Source: a virus (lineage: Duplodnaviria; Heunggongvirae; Uroviricota; Caudoviricetes). Taken from it: 44,713 nt of DNA. The notes beneath the pieces are model-generated. The model had not been told where the DNA came from, did not search any database, and saw only the letters and a program-made list of their open reading frames with translations. Of this stretch, positions 1 to 33,337 are shown piece by piece. The stretch lies in IMG/VR virus record IMGVR_UViG_2531839450_000015; one strand, written 5' to 3'. The translations under genes were made by a program, and so were the position numbers. How positions within the stretch are numbered: the first letter of the stretch is position 1; every line of letters begins with the position of its first letter.

Positions 1-582
1 TTACTCTGCAGGTGAAGTCGGCCACTCAATATCAGGTGCAGTTGATGTGTCAACACGGTTCAGCAATACCCGATACTTCTTCCAGGCTTCCAGCAACGAG
101 GTTTCTTCCTCCGTTGCAATTTCCAGATCTGCAGCATCCTGAAGCGGCGCAATATGCTCACTGGCTACCTGCATCAGGCTTTTTTTTGTTTCTTCCGCCT
201 CCCGGATCCGGAACAGTTTTTCTGCTTCCGTATCCTTCACCCAGGCTGTGCCGTTCCACTTCTGATATTCCCCTCCCGGCGATAACCAGGTAAAATTTTC
301 CGGTAACGGACCGGGTTCAGAAATAAATAACGCGTCGCCGGAAGCCACGTCATAGACGGTTTTACCCCGATGGTCTTCAACGAGATGCCACGATGCCTCA
401 TCACTGTTGAAAACAGCCACAAAGCCAGCCGGAATATCTGGCGGTGCAATATCGGTACTGTTTGCAGGCAGACCGGTATGAGGCGGAATATATGCGTCAC
501 CTTCACCAATAAATTCATTAGTTCCGGCCAGCAGATTATAAATTTTTATGGTCCGTGGTTGTTCACTCATTCTGAATGCCAT
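1..582 (-). CDS. tfa: Tail fibre assembly protein (lambda Tfa-like)
   Basis: 193-aa ORF directly downstream of the side tail fibre gene; stop codon at the window edge (1..3). Size and position match lambda Tfa. Confidence 0.8.
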
Positions 583-23743: not shown

Positions 23744-24610
23744 CTAAGCGAGGTTCTGGTTTTCAAATTGTTCCGGACTGAGGCCGCCACACCAACTGTG
23801 CCGCCGCCACCGATTGTAATCACATTCGATATAATTAAACACCGTTGCCCGCATTATTTCCCGGCTGATAAAGTGTTCTCCATGGATACATTCCACTTTC
23901 AGCGAATGAAAGAAGCTTTCCACGCAGGCATTATCGTAGCAGCAACCTTTTGCGCTCATACTTCCACGCAGATTATGCCGTTTCTGTTGCGCCTGATAAT
24001 CTGCTGAACAGTACTGGCCTCCACGGTCCGTGTGAACGATAACGTTCCGGGGCCTCTTACGCCGCCACAGCGCCATCTGCAGGGCATCGCAGGCCAGTTG
24101 CGCCGTCATGCGTGGCGACATTGACCAGCCAATAACGGCACGTGACCACAGGTCAATGACCACTGCCAGATACAGCCAGCCTTCATCTGTACGTAAGTAC
24201 GTGATGTCTCCTGCCCACTTCTGGTTCGGGCCACTGGCGTAAAAATCCTGCTCCAACAGATTTTCTGACACAGGCAGGCCGTGTGCGCGGTAGCTGACCG
24301 GGCTGAACTTCCGGGAGGCCTTTGCCCTCAGTCCCTGACGGCGCAGGCTTGCCGCCACGGTTTTTACGTTAAAGGGGTAACCCTGAGCACGCAGTTCATC
24401 CGTCAGGCGTGGGGCACCGTAACGCTGTTTTGACCGGGTAAAAGCCGCGAGGACAACGCTGTCGCAGTGTTGGCGGAACTGCTGACGCGTGCTTATCCTT
24501 GTCCGCCGCTGACACCACGTATACCAGCCGCTGCGGGCCACCCGGAGCACGCGGCACATTGCTTTGATGCTGAACTCAGCCTGATGTTTTTCAATAAAGA
24601 CATACTTCAT
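23744..24610 (-). CDS. insF: IS3 transposase OrfB (DDE integrase core)
   Basis: 288 aa; [31 protein letters not shown] and [11 protein letters not shown] motifs of IS3-family OrfB. Confidence 0.9.
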
Positions 24611-24915
24611 TTCAGGCGCTTCGCGAAGTATGTCGCGGCCTTTTGGAGGATAGCCAGCTCTTCATCCCGTTCTGCCAGCTGGCGTTTGAGACGTGCAATC
24701 TCGGTAGACATCTCCAGTTCACGTTCAGAAGACGTCTGCTGATTTTGCTGTTTACTGCGCCAGTTGTAGAGCTGTGATTCATACAGGCTGAGTTCACGGG
24801 CTGCGGCAGTAACACCGATGCGTTCAGCAAGCTTCAGGGCTTCACTGCGAAATTCAGGCGAATGCTGTTTACGGGGTTTTTTACTGGTTGATACTGTTTT
24901 TGTCATGTGAGTCAC
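24607..24915 (-). CDS. insE: IS3 transposase OrfA (HTH)
   Basis: [50 protein letters not shown]. Ends at the A-rich CAAAAGG frameshift window overlapping orfB. Confidence 0.9.
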
Positions 24916-25068: not shown

Positions 25069-25479
25069 ATGGCTCAGGTTGCCCTTTTTAAAGAAATATT
25101 TGATCAAGTGCGGAAAGATTTAAACTGTGACCGATTTTACTCTGAACTAAAACGTCACAATGTCTCACATTACATTTACTATTTAGCCACAGGTAATATT
25201 CACGTTGTATTGAAAAATGATAACGCAGTGTTAATAAAAGGACTTGAGGAGGTTGTGAATGTTAAATTTCGCAGAGACACGCGACTTATAGAAACTTACT
25301 CTCATAAGTTGAAATCAAGAGAAATCACATTTCATGAATACAGGGAAAATCTGGCTAAGGCTGGAGTTTTCCGATGGGTTACAAATGTCCATGAACACAA
25401 AAGGTATTACTATACCTTTGACAACTCATTATTGTTTACCGAAAGCATTCAGAACACGACACAATTTTTTCCACGCTAA
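25069..25479 (+). CDS. DUF1398-type protein (resembles DLP12 YbcV by recollection)
   Basis: 136-aa ORF next to bor on the same strand, as ybcV is in DLP12. Family assignment is from memory of the YbcV sequence. Confidence 0.55.
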
Positions 25480-25703
25480 ACCATATCGCCCGGTTTAATC
25501 CCCCTCACTATCCGGCACTCCCACACAGGAGTTACCAGTCGGTACTGAGGACATAGTTAATCCGGGAATACAATGAAAATACAGCACATCTGGCATACTT
25601 TAATAAACATTAAAAATATGAGATTTCAACTCATTGTTTAGGTTTTGTTTAAATTTCTACAAATACGATTCAACAACCTTAAAAACACAACGGGAATAAC
25701 ACT

Positions 25704-25997
25704 ATGAAAAAAACGCTACTCACTTTCACGCTGGCCCTGCTTATCTCTGGATGTGCTCAACAGACGTTTACTGTTGAAAACCAACCGACAACAGTAACAC
25801 CGAAGGAAACCATCACTCATCATTTCTTCGTTTCTGGAATTGGTCAGAAGAAAACTGTCGATGCAGCCAAAATTTGTGGTGGCGCAGAAAAAGTTGTTAA
25901 GACTGAAACCCAGCAAACATTCGTAAATGGATTGCTCGGTTTTATCACTTTCGGCATTTATACTCCGCTGGAAGCTCGGGTATATTGCTCACAATAA
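25704..25997 (+). CDS. bor: Bor lipoprotein (Bor/Iss serum-resistance family)
   Basis: 97 aa with a lipobox (LLISGCAQQ). ETITHHFFVSGIGQKKTVDAAKICGGAE and TPLEARVYCSQ match lambda Bor. Opposite strand to the late operon, as in lambda. Confidence 0.9.
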   Translation: MKKTLLTFTLALLISGCAQQTFTVENQPTTVTPKETITHHFFVSGIGQKKTVDAAKICGGAEKVVKTETQQTFVNGLLGFITFGIYTPLEARVYCSQ

Positions 25998-26006
25998 TAT
26001 CATAAG

Positions 26007-26028
26007 TTGCCCATCTCGATGGGCAACT
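26007..26028 (+). terminator. Hairpin downstream of bor (GTTGCCCATC..GATGGGCAAC), possible terminator
   Basis: Near-perfect 10-bp dyad directly after the bor stop codon. U-tract is weak on the plus strand and more T/A-rich on the minus strand. Confidence 0.4.
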
Positions 26029-26314
26029 CTATCTGCACTTGATGCGCAAATAACAACCTCCAAAAGAAAAATAGCAAAAGCAGACCGTGTCACATAAAGA
26101 CGTGCAGTTACTTTCTTTTCTATTCCTTTCATAACGGACGGCTTTAAAAGAAGATTTATACGATCTGCCGAGGATTTTTCTCTGTACTCACTGATTCATA
26201 TTCTCCTCTTTGTTTGGTATAAAAACCGAACTCTTTCTCCAGTCGTTTTTCTTGTTCGGTAAGTCTAATAACAAGCTAACCGCAGGTTGGATTTACTGGC
26301 CTCATTAATGCCAA

Positions 26315-26860
26315 CTACACCACCACGCGCTCTTTCATCCAGCCATACACGAACGATTCATTAGCCTCACGTTTTTCTGCCAGTTCAAGGTAGCGATCTC
26401 CCTGCGTACAGTTTAGCGCTGTCAGAATCACCAACTCACCATCCCTGCCACGTTTTGACAAATAGGCGCGTAACGCATTAATGGTACGTGGGCCGATACA
26501 ACCATCTGCATCAATGTCCGGATACAACTCTCCTTTCTGGTTAAATACATTAAGCCAGCGCTGAAGCATTCTGGATGCCACTGACGGCCCCATGTTTACG
26601 CCGGTATCACACAATTCAGCAGCGATCTCCGGAGACAGGCTCGCAACCTTGTGAAAACGTGGCCCGTACCAGTAGTCCGCTTCAAGAATTTCGAGGGCCT
26701 GCCCACGCGTCAGGTCACGAATATCCCCCTGATAACCGTGTGCACGGGCAACTTTTCCAGTAATGCCCCATTTAGTCGGACCACCTTTATCATCAGGGTG
26801 GTTGACGTAGCCGCCCTCTTTGCCAAGAACAGCATCAAAAATTTCATCTTTCGACTTCAT
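26315..26860 (-). CDS. Endolysin, glycoside hydrolase family 108-like with C-terminal peptidoglycan-binding domain
   Basis: EGGYVNHPDDKGGPTKWGIT motif typical of GH108 N-terminal domains. Start refined to ATG at 26860. Third gene of the lysis cassette. Confidence 0.65.
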   Translation of the reverse strand: MKSKDEIFDAVLGKEGGYVNHPDDKGGPTKWGITGKVARAHGYQGDIRDLTRGQALEILEADYWYGPRFHKVASLSPEIAAELCDTGVNMGPSVASRMLQRWLNVFNQKGELYPDIDADGCIGPRTINALRAYLSKRGRDGELVILTALNCTQGDRYLELAEKREANESFVYGWMKERVVV

Positions 26861-26861
26861 C

Positions 26862-27140
26862 TCAGCGCCTTCGTAATACAAAGATTTTTGAAACGTTCCC
26901 ACGAGCACGAACCACCAGCACGCAGAACAGCAGGTTAAAAAACACTTCCAGCCAGCCCGTTGCTAACGGGCGACCACACAGATAGCTGAGGGGCGCAAAG
27001 GCATACAGCAGCATCAGCAACCAGGCCAGCCATGACATCAGCGGTTTATGTCTGGAATCACGACGACGATAAAAAAAGAGCGTCAGCACGATAACCGTGC
27101 ATAACGCCACATTCAGCAATCCGGGAAGGTTACTTAACAT
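26862..27140 (-). CDS. Small multi-pass membrane protein in the lysis cassette (second holin or antiholin-like)
   Basis: 92 aa from ATG at 27140, with 2 to 3 hydrophobic helices and a charged C-terminus (RARGNVSKIFVLRRR). Sits between the holin and endolysin. Confidence 0.45.
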   Translation of the reverse strand: MLSNLPGLLNVALCTVIVLTLFFYRRRDSRHKPLMSWLAWLLMLLYAFAPLSYLCGRPLATGWLEVFFNLLFCVLVVRARGNVSKIFVLRRR

Positions 27141-27522
27141 TGCCGCCTCCTCCACCCCGCAGGCGGGAGAACAGGCCGGACACCAGCGATGCAATATCCT
27201 GCTGGTGGATGAACGAGAGAATCTTCACCGACACCACCGCCACCAGCACCGCACACAGTGCATCCGCCGATGTACCGTCATAACCTGTTTTTGATGCAAT
27301 CCAGGCTGACAGCACATGCGCACCCAGCACGCCAACGATAAACGACACCAGAAAATGCGCTGCCACACGCCAGGCAGATAGTGCCTGCGGCATTGTGGCC
27401 ACAAACAGCGCCCCGGCAAATGCGCCAAACACAATCCCGAAATCCGTTCCGGTAAACAGCCCGAATACCGTCGCCCCGCCGAGCGCCGCAGCCGTGCCGG
27501 AACCGGATAAGGGTTCAGACAT
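27130..27522 (-). CDS. Putative holin
   Basis: 130 aa from ATG at 27522 with upstream AGGAG. Gly/Ala-rich hydrophobic helices and first position in the lysis cassette. Confidence 0.55.
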   Translation of the reverse strand: MSEPLSGSGTAAALGGATVFGLFTGTDFGIVFGAFAGALFVATMPQALSAWRVAAHFLVSFIVGVLGAHVLSAWIASKTGYDGTSADALCAVLVAVVSVKILSFIHQQDIASLVSGLFSRLRGGGGGNVK

Positions 27523-27701
27523 ACTTTTTCTCCTGTAAATAAAAAAGGGCCACTGTCGGCCCGTAAAAAAACAACACCCCGTCAAAGGCACCCGCAGATA
27601 CCTTTTGTGTGGTGTTATCTGATGTGATGTACGCCGGACGTGGCGCGGATATAAAAAAGGCCCGCCGCAGCGAGCCTGTTTTCAATGAGTGCAAAATTCA
27701 A

Positions 27702-28445
27702 TTATTCTTGAGTAACACTTAAACTCATCTCATTGAATGCAGCCATCCTGTAACCTGCCGGTGTAACACCAAAATAACTCCTGAATACGCTGATAAAATA
27801 AGATGTAAAATTATAGCCACACTGAGCAGCGATTCTGTTGATGGCGCAACGAGATTGATTCAACAGCATTGCTGCCATTCTCATTCTCTCTGTAAGCAAC
27901 AACTCACTGAAACAGGTGCCTTCTTCTTTCAGTCTTTTTTTTAACAAACTTTCACTGATACATAACCGCGAAGACACATCTCTCAGAGTCCAGTTTGCTG
28001 CAATGTCCGTACGAAACAATGCACTAAGCCTGTCACTAATATTGCCAATACACGCGGTCAGAAACGACGAAAACATTTTCTCTGATGAGAAAAACGCCAG
28101 ACACGAAAAGGAAAGCATTTCCGCTAAATTGTCCGTATGAATCTTTTCCTCACAAAGATAATCAATCAGGATGCCCATCAATTCTGCCTTGGGAAAACTC
28201 ACGCAAAGATATCGTGGTATTTGCCGGACTAAAACTACATCCTGTTTTTCGTCTCCACACAACAGGTAACGGATAATTGTCGATTCACTGAGACTTATTC
28301 GCCGAAAACATTCCGAAAAGGGCAATAACGATCCAGCTCCCCCCCTGACAAGAAGTGCACTACCACTTTCCAGAGAGAGCTCTTTTCCTTCAAAGAGCAC
28401 AACAAACGGGGAATGAACAAAAACAACAGAACAAGCTTCATTCAT
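27702..28445 (-). CDS. AraC/XylS-family transcriptional regulator (moron)
   Basis: C-terminal AraC-type HTH (WTLRDVSSRLCISESLLKKRLKEEGT...IAAQCGYNFTSYFISVFRSYFGVTPAGY). Low-GC, AT-rich gene. Start may be 28445 or 28505. Confidence 0.8.
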   Translation of the reverse strand: MNEACSVVFVHSPFVVLFEGKELSLESGSALLVRGGAGSLLPFSECFRRISLSESTIIRYLLCGDEKQDVVLVRQIPRYLCVSFPKAELMGILIDYLCEEKIHTDNLAEMLSFSCLAFFSSEKMFSSFLTACIGNISDRLSALFRTDIAANWTLRDVSSRLCISESLLKKRLKEEGTCFSELLLTERMRMAAMLLNQSRCAINRIAAQCGYNFTSYFISVFRSYFGVTPAGYRMAAFNEMSLSVTQE

Positions 28446-28667
28446 ATCAATTGCCCTGACATTACTGGTCACAAGATAAGTATATATCGATTTACAAAAA
28501 TACAAGCCGAAAGACCAGTATTCGCAACCACCAGCGCGTTTAACGTCCTGTACCGTTTTTCAGGCATAAAAAACCCGCTCAGTGGCGGGTTTAAGCTGTT
28601 TGGCGTAGTAACCACTCTTAACAGGATATTCAACTTTTTACGATCGTAAAGCGTTCGGGGAAAATTT

Positions 28668-29156
28668 TTAAAACCGTTCCAGAGTGCATACCATCGCATC
28701 GGCGGGTAGTTTTTCCGTGAAGTCAACCTGACCGTGTTTATCGAAGTGGATCAGTAATGCGCATCCATCATTTTGGGTTGGGGTGTTTTGTGCTGCTGGT
28801 GGTTGTTTTTGGCTGAAATAACAGTCTTCCAGTTTTTCGAACACTTCCCACGCCTGATCGGTTTCCAGCATTTTGGCGTGACGGGCTGCTCCGCGTTCTG
28901 TCCAGAGGATGAGGTGCTTTGTACGCGGTGCAACTAAGTTACTTTGAGTAACCTTGTTCTTAAATTCCCGCAACTCAGCCCCTTCCAATTTGAAGTAGTG
29001 TTTCCCACAAACAAAACGCTCGGCATTGCGTGTATAGTTCACTTTGATGTTATTAGTTTCGGTGCCATAAAGTTGTGCCAAAAGCTCGGTAGTAATGACA
29101 GGGATTTGGTTATGGGTGATCGGGGAAAGAGTTTCAACTGAGATTTGAATAGCCAT
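28668..29156 (-). CDS. ORF6N-domain protein (antirepressor-like family)
   Basis: LLAQLYGTETNNIKVNYTRNAERFVCGKHYFKLEGAELREFK fits the ORF6N consensus pattern (LAxLYGxET...RNxERF...F.L...EL) as I recall it. Confidence 0.55.
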   Translation of the reverse strand: MAIQISVETLSPITHNQIPVITTELLAQLYGTETNNIKVNYTRNAERFVCGKHYFKLEGAELREFKNKVTQSNLVAPRTKHLILWTERGAARHAKMLETDQAWEVFEKLEDCYFSQKQPPAAQNTPTQNDGCALLIHFDKHGQVDFTEKLPADAMVCTLERF

Positions 29157-29315
29157 AGGATGATCCTTTTTCTATGTGAATCATCACCACTGCTGACGCC
29201 AATCAGTATGGTGGTGAACTGTGCAGGGTTGGCGTAACCGGGAAAAAGGAACCGGCGCGGATCGCTCCGCCCCCACACAGCCCACCATTGAGATGTGACA
29301 GTGCAAACGACAATA

Positions 29316-29340
29316 AAAAAGACGCTGGCGCGTCTGTTGT
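29316..29340 (-). terminator. tR'-like intrinsic terminator downstream of Q
   Basis: Minus-strand AGACGC-GCCA-GCGTCT followed by TTTTTTATT, located between the Q stop and the first late gene. Confidence 0.5.
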
Positions 29341-29429
29341 CGCCTTTTTCATCCGGGACGCCAATCCCGACGCCAGATTTTGCTGGCGCGTGAGGAATAT
29401 AGCCCCGGACAATGTGTCTGGTCAAGCTC

Positions 29430-29825
29430 CTACATGATTCGTTCTACGTATCTGTCCATCTCCAGTCGGATATCAAGCATCATCAACATGCCATCAATAA
29501 CCCCTTCCGCTTTCTGCAGGCGCTTGCCAATACAGGTATCCGAACACCCATGCTTTCGTGCCAACCCCATAAAAGTCATTCCACCTACGTAATAATCCAC
29601 CAACAAATCGTGCAAATCCTGATTTTTCTTGTTCAACCGGGCCATACAGCCACAAATTATCATTGCATCATCATCAGAACACTGAGGGCGTGATTTCACT
29701 TTCGGCGGGATTAATCCTTTAAAACCAGCAGCGATTGACGCCCATGACACATCTTCGTGATTGTTCGCAGCCCATGCTCCCCACCGCTCCATAACCTGCT
29801 GAATATCACGCACCATCGTTATCAC
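29430..29825 (-). CDS. Q: Late antiterminator Q (phage-82 / QuuD type)
   Basis: [26 protein letters not shown] and [14 protein letters not shown] match the Q antitermination family of DLP12 QuuD and phage 82. Confidence 0.8.
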
Positions 29826-30177
29826 CTGTAATTTCGTAAATCTTCACGCCCAACCGCCCACCAGGAACAGGCAGTCCGCGCACAATATTGATTTCATCAA
29901 ACTGCTCGTCGTCTATAAGTAGTCCGGCATGCGTCAGCGCATCCAGTGGTGCCTTCAGGATATTGTCCAGGTCGCGGCGGCGCTTATCCGGTGGCTCTGC
30001 AATAATTTTTATTGCCAGCCTTCCGGACAGGTTTAATTTCAGTCGCTGCTGGCGAACAATAAGCGCCACATCACGGCGATAACGCTCACCGGCTTTTGAT
30101 ACAAAATATGTGCTGCCACGACGTCGCCAGTAGGTGTTCACCGTTGGCGGGTAAGGCAAAACAAATTCTATCCCCAT
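29806..30177 (-). CDS. rusA: Holliday junction resolvase RusA
   Basis: [13 protein letters not shown] and [20 protein letters not shown], the RusA catalytic Asp-containing motif. Confidence 0.9.
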
Positions 30178-30189
30178 CAGTAACCTCTT

Positions 30190-31239
30190 TTATCCGAGTA
30201 CGCCTGTTGCAAAGGCGTGATCAAGAAAACGAAAAATTAAATCAACCTGAGAACCATGCTTTTCTTCGAATGCCTGCGGATCCGCATGAAGCTCGTTGTG
30301 ATGCTCCCGACACAGCGGCAACGTAAAAATATCGTGGGCCTTTGTTCCCATCCCTCCCTGACCGTGACCAATCAGGTGATGGGGATCGTCGGCTGGCTTA
30401 CCACAACACGCACACGGCTGTGTCTTCACCCAGCGTGTGTATTTCTCGTTAACCCAGCGGCGACGTTTAGGTCGTTTCATGAAAGATTCCGGAGACTCAG
30501 GATCAACGGCAATGCTGACCACCGTCTTTTCCTGTGGTGGGTTCTGTTGCTGGTGGGCGTGAGGCAACAGCGCAAAATTTTTTGTGCGCTGCTTCAGTAT
30601 GCTGGTGGCTGTCTGTTCTCCCGGTATGATGTCGCTCTCGCGGTAAAGCGAGCGGATTTTCTCCGCCGGTAATCCCAGTGAGCGGCGTAATACAGCCTCC
30701 GGTAGTGCGTCCGCTACCTGATTGCAGACCGCCCACCAGGATAATTCAGCCAGAGATAATTCACGCTCCTGCGTACCGCTTATTGCGTGACCGATGACGT
30801 CAATCATCCATGCTGACAGGTTTTGATGAGCAAGTTGCTCGAGTGATTCGGATGTCTGGTCACGCAGCTGGTTGTCGCAGTGCCAGCACAACACCATTGC
30901 GCCGGTACCATAACGGTGAATGACGGTTTCACTGTGGTGATAATCGCCGTGTGGCCACTGGCAGGATTTAACATGGCGCAGTAACCAGTCAGACAATGCG
31001 CCAGCGCCACCAGCAGCACGAATCACTCGTTCGTCGCTGAAAAATGGCAGTAATGATTTATCCTCCGCCAGCGGCTGGCGAACGGCAGGAACGACCCCGG
31101 ACGGCAGATTACGCATGCTTTTCGGTTCCGGCTCCACCAGTACCCGGGTATTGTGGAATACCGGCATGGATTCACGGCCCGGCTTAACGATCACCAGCCC
31201 GAGTTCCGGTACCAGAACAGGTCGAAGTAATACCCGCAC
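30190..31239 (-). CDS. DUF968-family protein (Qin YdfU-like) with C-terminal His-rich putative nuclease motif
   Basis: 349 aa; CACCGKPADDPHHLIGHGQGGMGTKAHDIFTLPLCREHHNELH. Length and position next to a Rem-like ORF and hok resemble Qin ydfU. Confidence 0.55.
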   Translation of the reverse strand: MRVLLRPVLVPELGLVIVKPGRESMPVFHNTRVLVEPEPKSMRNLPSGVVPAVRQPLAEDKSLLPFFSDERVIRAAGGAGALSDWLLRHVKSCQWPHGDYHHSETVIHRYGTGAMVLCWHCDNQLRDQTSESLEQLAHQNLSAWMIDVIGHAISGTQERELSLAELSWWAVCNQVADALPEAVLRRSLGLPAEKIRSLYRESDIIPGEQTATSILKQRTKNFALLPHAHQQQNPPQEKTVVSIAVDPESPESFMKRPKRRRWVNEKYTRWVKTQPCACCGKPADDPHHLIGHGQGGMGTKAHDIFTLPLCREHHNELHADPQAFEEKHGSQVDLIFRFLDHAFATGVLG

Positions 31240-31977: not shown

Positions 31978-32133
31978 TTACTCCTCAGGTTCGTAAACTG
32001 TGAAGACAGCGACCTCCGTCTGGCCGGTTCGGATTCGTACCTCGCAGAGGTCTTTCCTCGTTACCAGTGCCGTCACTATGACGGTTAAACAGATGACGAT
32101 CAGGGCGATTAACATCGCCTTTTGCTGCTTCAT
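31978..32133 (-). CDS. hok: Hok/Gef-family type I toxin
   Basis: MKQQKAMLIALIVICLTVIVTALVTRKDLCEVRIRTGQTEVAVFTVYEPEE is essentially the HokD/RelF sequence as I recall it. AAGGAG SD upstream. An overlapping upstream in-frame extension (to 32190) corresponds to a mok-like frame. Confidence 0.85.
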   Translation of the reverse strand: MKQQKAMLIALIVICLTVIVTALVTRKDLCEVRIRTGQTEVAVFTVYEPEE

Positions 32134-32542
32134 AGCCTGCTTCTCCTTGCCTTTCGGCACGTAAGAGGCTAACCTAGATTTGCCGTTCATAGATTGAGCC
32201 TCAGATTAATGTTAAGCGTCTTGCAGGACGCATAATGTTAACTGGGGCTTTTCTCTATCTGCCTTTGGTGTTCATGCTTGAGGCAGATAGCCTCAAGCAC
32301 CCGCAGCAATTTTACTTAACTCCCCTTTTCCCACAAATCGTTTTTATCCCTATTGGTAATGTTCTCCCGATGTGGGATTCCCACATTGGAACGAATTCAA
32401 TCAGTTAAAGACTCATCAGAATCTCACCTTTCTAAGTGCCCACAGGTGAGGCATTGCAATAAAAATAGCAAACGTGTATAAAAGGAGGTAATGCATGTTT
32501 TTCCAGTCTTATCAATCCATTACTGAGAGTTAAGGGGGCGCC

Positions 32543-33337
32543 GTGGATCGGTGCGGTAATTATTTACTTAAAGATGGTCGCAGTTTAGGACAAGGGAGTT
32601 TTGGCGAAGTATTTAAGGTTGATGTCTATAACTTAACCCAGACCCACATGACCACATATGCTCGCAAATACTTTTCACCTTGCCCGGACTTTGACAAGAC
32701 CGCTATAAAAGAGTTGACTGATTTAAGACAGCGTTTTTTAGTTGAGATCAAAACACAATGCACTCTCAATAGAATAAACTATGATTCAATAGCGCCAATA
32801 GTTTTATTTAATACAAATGGTGATAAACCTTATTTTGTTATGGAATTGGCAGAGTGTAATTTATATGAAGCCATCCGCAATGGTATGAATTACGCGGAGA
32901 GGAAGTCTGCTGTTACTCAGATTTTAAAAGGAATTATCACCATACATGAAAACAACTATATACATCGTGATTTAAAACCAGGAAACATACTTTATTATGC
33001 CGATGGAAAGTATAAAATATCTGATTTTGGTCTAGTAAAAGACAGAGATACCTTACGGGCCGAAATCAAAACAAAATTTAAGCCTAATCACATGGGCACA
33101 GATGGATATCGAGCGCCCGAAATACATGATAGCGGTCTTTTTTCTTTTCAAAGCGACATATTTGCAGCAGGTAAAATTATCACTGATATATATCCCACAG
33201 AAAGAAGTGAAAAATTAAAAAGATTGATTGCAAAATGTTGCGCACATTGGCCTGAAGAACGATATCAAAGCACACGGGAGTTACTGGAAGATTTTTTAAA
33301 AGTGACGGGGGAGGTAAATCATGAAGAACATAATTGA
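32543..33337 (+). CDS. Hanks-type (eukaryotic-like) Ser/Thr protein kinase
   Basis: Complete kinase signature set: Gly loop GQGSFGEV, lysine in YARK, catalytic loop HRDLKPGNIL, DFG (ISDFGLV), APE (GYRAPE). GTG start in the track; an in-frame SD-led ATG lies at 32495 but is followed by TAA. Confidence 0.85.
   Translation: MDRCGNYLLKDGRSLGQGSFGEVFKVDVYNLTQTHMTTYARKYFSPCPDFDKTAIKELTDLRQRFLVEIKTQCTLNRINYDSIAPIVLFNTNGDKPYFVMELAECNLYEAIRNGMNYAERKSAVTQILKGIITIHENNYIHRDLKPGNILYYADGKYKISDFGLVKDRDTLRAEIKTKFKPNHMGTDGYRAPEIHDSGLFSFQSDIFAAGKIITDIYPTERSEKLKRLIAKCCAHWPEERYQSTRELLEDFLKVTGEVNHEEHN

Follow-up and report, generated by a model that had tools for sequence, protein, structure and literature searches.

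YdeO and GadW are core regulators of the glutamic acid decarboxylase (GAD) circuit of acid resistance in Escherichia coli, and AraC-like regulators borne by prophages (PatE, PsrA/B and AppY) plug into this network and, in enterohaemorrhagic E. coli, modulate type III secretion. PatE activates gadB/C/E and hdeAB, and PatE and PsrB both activate gadE and hdeA(B) (PMC10877973). AppY directly activates gadE, gadY and nhaR (PMC10057817). PsrA and PsrB, from OI-50 and OI-57 of O157:H7, are described as AraC-like regulators found only in prophages; they increase GadE/YhiF and acid resistance and act as repressors of type III secretion (PMC10877973, PMC8565820). At another type of prophage locus, that of Gifsy-1, the organization is antQ-isrK-orf45-anrP (PMC4825925). 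We have analyzed a stretch of 44,713 nucleotides (nt) from the virus record IMGVR_UViG_2531839450_000015 (hereafter the window), in which a gene coding for an AraC-like protein is located between the antiterminator gene Q and the lysis genes. To judge from its sequence, this regulator is an uncharacterised further lineage of the known prophage-borne group of PatE, PsrA/B and AppY. We consider it on balance probable that it is a functional AraC/XylS factor, carried on a compact moron of ~850 bp (28503-27654), with low or conditional expression in the lysogen and with host acid-resistance genes as targets of activation. What stands out is its fixed place right behind the late terminator, kept with several Q types, together with a conserved leader and an adjoining IsrK/C4-antirepressor module.

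The gene in question is:
27702-28445, minus strand: AraC/XylS-family regulator of 247 amino acids, GadW/YdeO/AppY/PatE subfamily (Pfam, NCBIfam, alignments, PHROG, AlphaFold2 model and ratio of nonsynonymous to synonymous changes, dN/dS)

A preliminary description had noted two genes here, and both are real, with open reading frames (ORFs) on the minus strand at 27702-28445(-28505) and at 28668-29156. The start of the regulator in RefSeq is the ATG at 28445, and the alignment with PatE agrees. Two Pfam matches, HTH_18 (PF12833, 1.4e-13) and HTH_AraC (PF00165, 4e-13), assign the protein to the AraC/XylS family. The best NCBIfam models were YdeO (1e-42) and GadX (6e-28), both far under their equivalog cutoffs (146.5 bits vs a cutoff of 348 for the YdeO model NF007407), and therefore the regulator is not an orthologue of YdeO, GadW or GadX. 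The BLASTP alignments to PatE, GadW, YdeO and AppY are colinear and span its residues 1-232, i.e., they include the N-terminal ~130 amino acids, which together with a length within ~240-255 amino acids places it in the same small subfamily of enterobacteria. The identity with PatE of O157:H7 Sakai (247 amino acids, the same length) was 39% over 234 residues, from the first one onward, while the full-length values were 37% for YdeO, 36% for GadW and 30% for AppY; with GadX it was 40-43%, over the DNA-binding domain only. The N-terminus MxxxCSV and the recognition-helix region SESLLKKxLK are common to the regulator and its subfamily relatives. When 1.84 billion representative proteins were searched with HMMER, eight clusters appeared at E <= 1e-30 and ~25 align over the full length. 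Clustered at 50% identity, the regulator stands apart in a cluster of its own; at 90%, its cluster comprises 241 proteins of E. coli, with generic names throughout. Since the names of the ten nearest clusters are generic as well, no characterised name attaches to it. Among the PHROGs it matches phrog_1450 (1.8e-55), of unknown function. One of these ten clusters (P0213) was discarded as a prophage gene, because it sits in an integrase-associated island. A paralogue of 252 amino acids from the same subfamily (33% identity; L021-L023, 6001-6759) is found in an integrase-associated island, beside a TPR protein and a GGDEF protein and not in a prophage.

The AlphaFold2 model (predicted local distance difference test, pLDDT, 87.5) has a beta-rich N-terminal domain and a C-terminal domain with seven helices (residues 136-245). 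In the model the first packs as a regulatory domain on the second, the DNA-binding one, which is the two-domain layout of Rns and ToxT. Compared with Foldseek over the full length (~250 columns), this predicted model matched Rns and CsvR (E ~4e-12) and ToxT (3e-9), with a template modelling (TM) score of only 0.42, the domain orientation differing. Its DNA-binding domain alone superposes on that of GadX (3mkl) with a root-mean-square deviation of 1.0 Å and TM of 0.91-0.93, and also on the MarA and AraC domains. That the best full-length folds are Rns, CsvR and ToxT raises the alternative of an active regulator with targets other than the GAD genes, such as fimbrial or virulence operons (as for those three proteins), other prophage genes or promoters of its own phage; the identity to the GAD-circuit regulators, of only 30-39%, and the separate cluster at 50% identity point the same way. 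However, when both domains are considered, the regulator is clearly closest in sequence to the GadW/YdeO/PatE group, with Rns reaching only 20% identity in the fold alignment, and all the characterised members of that group feed into gadE/hdeA. We hold these other targets to be unlikely. By analogy, and at an identity of 30-39%, the most probable role would be that of a transcription activator feeding the acid-resistance network, with secondary effects.

The ORF was intact in every orthologue examined and the dN/dS against orthologues of 75-86% amino acid identity was 0.23-0.33, indicating that the gene is maintained by purifying selection. At a coverage of at least 80%, it was present in 65 of the 5,426 complete E. 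coli genomes (~1.2%), 42 times at 95% identity or more and 23 times at ~90.7%. The sources among the matches listed were mainly cattle, pigs and farm environments. The whole arrangement of 2 kb was found in 12 complete genomes only, with an identity of at least 99.7%. None of the deposited phage genomes had the regulator gene itself, their best matches being paralogues of at most 40% identity. Besides, a fragment with 46% identity, from a record labelled "phage" with O157 as host, was rejected, as it corresponds to adiY-adiC of a non-E. coli chromosome. A DNA search with the gene (65-70% sensitivity) matched 168 genomes, with no O157:H7 strain among the best 60 of the 168, which tentatively suggests that the psrA and psrB genes of O157:H7 have no close DNA similarity to it. 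The rarity of the gene among the complete genomes, together with an insertion of IS3 and a shortened antirepressor in the same prophage, would be compatible with a decaying cargo of a defective prophage without current function. We consider this very improbable: the intact ORF and the low dN/dS hold across orthologues of 75-100% identity, the leader and both terminators described below are conserved and the confidence of the structural model is high.

The window corresponds to an almost complete lambdoid prophage of E. coli, and a prophage of the bovine mastitis strain E. coli 1303 has 99.8% identity with it over the region 26001-30200. The order on the minus strand is a DUF968 protein, RusA, Q, an ORF6N protein, the AraC-like protein, a PF16931 holin, a holin with three transmembrane segments (3TM) and a GH108 muramidase; Bor, a DUF1398 protein and IS3 are located beyond these genes. 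The RefSeq annotation of E. coli 1303 has the identical gene order. Two elements upstream of the regulator gene define its slot:
28623-28650, minus strand: candidate late promoter pR'/qut (TTTACG-16-TATCCT), specific to this Q type, with an 8/12 match and homology to the 9/12 promoter that immediately follows Q of the Shiga toxin 2 (Stx2) phage PA28
28565-28593, minus strand: hairpin plus U-run, candidate terminator tR' (stem AACCCGC/GCGGGUU and U6, z = -2.3), the upstream boundary common to all the AraC-carrying loci

The sequence 28650-28568 is homologous to the DNA directly 3' of Q in PA28, and in the scan of this phage a 9/12 promoter was followed by the same hairpin, called as a terminator. 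The hairpin was conserved in all the loci compared, with a fully compensated stem in the most divergent (75%) orthologue. The 60 nt before it (28650-28592) were shared only by the loci with a related Q (L012, L013 and L014), and other Q types carried other sequences there. Because this element, in a comparison of six loci, co-varies with the Q type and is followed by the shared terminator, we read 28650-28623 as the late promoter and the hairpin as tR', so that the pair likely lies between the ORF6N gene and the regulator gene (28650-28570). The intergenic region between Q and ORF6N, proposed before as tR', is not simply that; it holds an isrK/C4 module, and 28650-28570 is the likelier location of pR'/tR'. 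The promoter at 29425-29396 was rejected as pR', being better explained as that of isrK.

If this reading of pR'/tR' is right, the regulator gene would be the first gene of the late operon, in the slot of stx: 3' of the Q-cognate pR'/qut and tR', 5' of the lysis genes and on the same strand, with presumed read-through by Q. The same gene was found directly after three further antiterminator types, and also after a related Q with a reversed ompC between them. The free phage Lambda_ev203 has a paralogue (37% identity) flanked by Q and holin S, and a paralogue of phiSTEC1575-Stx2k (36%) is flanked by Q and tRNA-stx2. The idea of a moron in the stx slot is therefore supported, by the common orientation of Q, regulator and lysis genes, the Q-type-specific element and hairpin homologous to PA28, and the paralogues in Lambda_ev203 and in the Stx2k phage. 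Being the first after tR' for at least four Q/pR' types, the gene may have its main expression coupled by Q to prophage induction, as for Shiga toxin. A subpopulation triggered by SOS or by the antirepressor would in that case switch on a GadW/PatE-like regulator that reprograms acid-stress or virulence regulons or sets the conditions for lysis, with no classical lysogenic conversion. We regard this scenario as doubtful.

The boundaries of the module were located by comparing the window with seven related loci, and the following elements delimit it:
28473-28505, minus strand: near-invariant leader block of 33 nt with which the AraC-specific DNA begins, candidate promoter/operator (TTGTAT-15-TATACT), from conservation among orthologues and the divergence of L014 at ~28503
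27650-27677, minus strand: intrinsic terminator directly 3' of the regulator gene and downstream module boundary (stem of 8 bp with 6 GC pairs, U6; -17.8 kcal/mol, z = -3.4; hairpin 27677-27658; boundary of L012 at 27654)
27540-27562, minus strand: second terminator-like hairpin, just 5' of the holin ribosome-binding site (hairpin/terminator scan, folding)

Where the AraC gene is located behind other antiterminator types, a PF03589 Q of 273 amino acids in L010 and L019 and a DUF1133 protein in L011, the DNA in common with the window starts only at 28591 or 28589 and continues downward. In L012, from a pig strain, where a related Q is followed by the reversed ompC and then by the AraC gene, the common DNA starts at 28650. 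Here, a segment with tRNA-Gly is inserted after 27654 and has the same terminator hairpin on both sides (L012 5744-6700 vs window 27654-27676); recombination between modules seems to use terminators as junctions. L014 has the same Q-isrK-ORF6N arrangement without the AraC gene, and is common with the window over 28676-28503, after which other genes follow. From these divergence points, the AraC-specific DNA comprises ~28503-27654 (~850 bp). As in other morons, the gene is present or absent between related phages with shared flanks (L014), deviates in base composition from its surroundings (GC 41.7% vs 50.4%) and has its own downstream terminator (hairpin 27677-27658 and U-run). The separate acquisition suggested in the preliminary description is supported by the module boundaries, by L014 lacking the gene and by the low GC. 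The claim that the gene is markedly AT-rich stands in its direction and was overstated in degree. Its coding sequence has a GC of 41.7% (GC3 39.5%), compared with 47% in Q, 50.4% over the whole window and 59% in the neighbouring holin gene; the deviation is moderate, ~1.5 standard deviations under the mean of 744-nt windows, 10% of which are equally low. It resembles that of the other cargo genes, Bor and DUF1398.

The leader block and both terminators were conserved among the regulator orthologues, and only 2 of the 33 leader positions differed in an orthologue with a synonymous divergence (dS) of 0.59. The constrained non-coding block and the two terminators before the holins favour, without proving it, a transcription in the lysogen that is independent of Q. 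If terminator-resistant polymerase alone crossed the regulator gene, the two terminators would be pointless. In the lysogen, the regulator would most likely be made in small amounts or under certain conditions only, with transcripts starting at a promoter of the leader block that is weak or requires an activator, or reaching the gene by read-through of the upstream hairpin, and the terminators 3' of the gene would keep this transcription out of the holin genes. At induction, the flanking terminators would not stop the Q-modified polymerase, and the regulator would be co-transcribed with the lysis genes. Its two helix-turn-helix motifs most likely bind AT-rich sites, by analogy with PatE, PsrB, AppY, YdeO and GadW, and the protein would activate gadE and hdeAB, with knock-on effects on other regulons.

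Several points weigh against such a regulator acting on acid resistance in the lysogen. No sigma-70 promoter reaching 9/12 was found upstream of the gene (scan of 26800-30000), and the best relaxed match, TTGTAT-15-TATACT inside the conserved 33-nt block, has 8/12 and a spacer of 15 nt. A terminator hairpin is located 125 nt upstream of the gene, which could therefore be silent in lysogens. The pR' was assigned from homology and from co-variation with the Q type rather than from a mapped start, and its match in the window is only 8/12. Besides, target specificity cannot be transferred with confidence, because no characterised regulator exceeds 39% identity and the score with the YdeO model is 146 bits vs a cutoff of 348. 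The absence of a consensus promoter and the hairpin upstream, together with the late-gene orientation and with the absence of other ORFs between it and the candidate tR' in several Q types, would fit a true late gene without promoter of its own, made only under Q antitermination at induction, as Stx, and with a role in the lytic cycle (reprogramming of the dying host or lysis timing). However, the strong terminator right after the stop codon and the second one before the holin are hard to explain with the Q-modified polymerase alone, the 33-nt leader block is far more constrained than synonymous sites, and the characterised relatives PatE, PsrA/B and AppY act in lysogens (PMC10877973, PMC10057817). 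We judge a purely late gene unlikely but a serious rival, and keep low or conditional expression in the lysogen as the preferred reading.

The preliminary description had considered the ORF6N gene as a second inserted cargo or moron. This was not borne out, since the gene codes for a C-terminally shortened antirepressor that belongs to an isrK/C4 antisense-RNA module with these elements:
28668-29156, minus strand: ORF6N-domain antirepressor (Ant/AnrP type) with the last 24 residues missing (Pfam ORF6N 1.2e-21; phrog_2379, anti-repressor, 2.6e-78, profile positions 1-163 of 187)
29396-29425, minus strand: sigma-70-like promoter TTGACC-18-TATATT that would start the isrK RNA at ~29389 (10/12, the only promoter match in 26800-30000; fits the isrK 5' end)
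29315-29402, minus strand: isrK small RNA and a1-b1 target element (isrK RF01394, 79.4 bits vs gathering score 50, 29389-29315; a1/b1 RF03163, 52.2 bits, 29402-29350)
29207-29292, minus strand: C4-type antisense RNA (RF01695, 74 bits vs gathering score 45, full length)
29164-29202, minus strand: a2/b2-like C4 target sites, UUGGCGU at 29202-29196 and GAAAAAGGA at 29172-29164, the latter being the Shine-Dalgarno region of the ORF6N gene (exact complementarity to C4)

The spacer of 273 nt between Q and ORF6N had three Rfam matches over the gathering score, and a terminator hairpin at 29335-29320 (z = -3.8) coincides with the 3' end of isrK. The C4 motif UCCUUUUUC is exactly complementary to GAAAAAGGA at the ORF6N Shine-Dalgarno, and its ACGCCAA to the UUGGCGU located 24 nt upstream. 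Both target motifs recur in isrK. The global duplex energies of C4 with its targets were the same as those of shuffled sequences, and were discarded in favour of the exact motifs. No coupled ORF of the orf45/icd type could be established, the only one being a TTG ORF of 40 codons (29184-29306) that overlaps C4. The presence of isrK/a1b1 and C4 upstream of an antirepressor beside Q, and the complementarity of C4 to the translation start region, indicate from nucleotide motifs that the ORF6N gene is the antirepressor of the induction circuit of the phage itself, presumably under translational control by the C4-type RNA with isrK as a1/b1 element. As part of the induction circuitry, the ORF6N gene is no candidate for lysogenic conversion. 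By its insertion, the isrK/C4-antirepressor module appears to have separated Q from the cognate pR' element.

The antirepressor itself is not intact. Its protein has 162 amino acids vs 195 in the closest full-length relative, with which it is colinear and 79% identical, and stops 24 residues early; RefSeq flags the gene as a pseudogene with the C-terminus missing. The identity to Ant of Stx phages was 47-90%, and the DNA was 84% identical to their ant gene and upstream region. The shortening corresponds to a deletion between short direct repeats CGGYTTTAAA (window 28668-28680; L014 4702-4770). The insertion of the AraC module as cause of the truncation was rejected, as the sequence of L014 after the gene is continuous and the window has the small deletion flanked by repeats. 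The 12 genomes that share the 2-kb arrangement at 99.7% identity or more are thereby implied to have the same shortened allele.

The genes that flank the two modules are:
29430-29825, minus strand: antiterminator Q (Phage_antitermQ; Pfam 2.5e-52, phrog_79; RefSeq start 29813; ~75% nucleotide identity to Q of the Stx2 phage PA28)
26315-27522, minus strand: lysis cassette with PF16931 holin, 3TM holin and GH108 muramidase (Pfam; RefSeq coordinates)

After the muramidase, the region 25998-26314 has no obvious Rz/Rz1 spanin genes, and the only ORF before Bor is of 47 codons. Bor lipoprotein and a DUF1398 (YbcV-like) gene (25069-25997, plus strand, GC 42.5% and 35.5%) are further cargo genes, located 3' of the lysis cassette and in the opposite orientation. 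Between them and the small terminase there is an IS3 element with a programmed-frameshift transposase (23744-24915, minus strand), and the prophage that bears it may be defective. A eukaryotic-type Ser/Thr protein kinase (32543-33337, plus strand, Pkinase 1.4e-31, phrog_2361), in a stretch of 32-36% GC and on the strand opposite to the early genes, may be a Stk-like exclusion gene. In the nin-like region, on the minus strand, a hok-family toxin ORF (31978-32190, hokD in the matching prophage of E. coli 1303) overlaps a match to the sok antitoxin RNA (RF01794, 112 bits, 32128-32302). At the tail-fibre end there is an Rfam match to the IS009 RNA (41-239, minus strand, 223 bits). No tRNA genes were found in the window.

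If the regulator does alter acid resistance, gut passage and persistence of the strains that carry it could be affected. The slot where its gene is fixed is the one under the strongest Q control in the prophage, and this position allows a clean test of expression in the lysogen vs expression only at induction. The recognition of the ORF6N gene and of the Q-proximal intergenic region as an IsrK/C4 antirepressor circuit matters also for the annotation of pR'/tR' in prophages of this kind.

Among the systems described, PatE (Z0321 / ECs_0287, prophage CP-933H/Sp1 of E. coli O157:H7) is like the regulator prophage-borne, of 247 amino acids and with the same two-domain layout at 39% identity, a sequence distance too large to assume the same targets. 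However, in its own prophage the gene is found past the tail-fibre and pin region, at the far end (likewise in phage mEp332), and not between Q and the lysis genes. PsrA and PsrB resemble the regulator by their descriptions, as AraC-like proteins of prophages; eight family members used as tblastn queries gave no AraC homologue in Sp6 of Sakai, in the part of Sp10 up to 1,970,900 or in the middle of CP-933N of EDL933. AppY, from the DLP12 prophage of K-12, is prophage-encoded and of the same subfamily too (30% identity over the full length), but appY is at the prophage end beside ompT, beyond tail-fibre remnants, and its sequence is more distant than those of PatE, GadW and YdeO. With the chromosomal GAD circuit the regulator shares 36-37% identity over the full length of YdeO and GadW and 40-43% in the DNA-binding domain of GadX, and differs in its phage location and in the sequence of the N-terminal domain.

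For the adjoining module, the P1 immI locus (c4-icd-ant) has the same organization as the isrK/C4-antirepressor locus of the window. The latter shares with the isrK locus of Gifsy-1 the order Q, isrK with its own promoter and terminator, C4-like RNA and antirepressor, upstream of the lysis genes (PMC4825925). It differs from Gifsy-1 and P1 immI in that C4 would pair directly with the ORF6N Shine-Dalgarno and in that the antirepressor is without its last 24 residues. Finally, the regulator gene occupies the same slot as stx and other lambdoid morons 3' of pR'/tR', in the same orientation and behind an upstream element homologous to that of PA28, whereas its cargo is a regulator and no toxin, followed by its own terminators.

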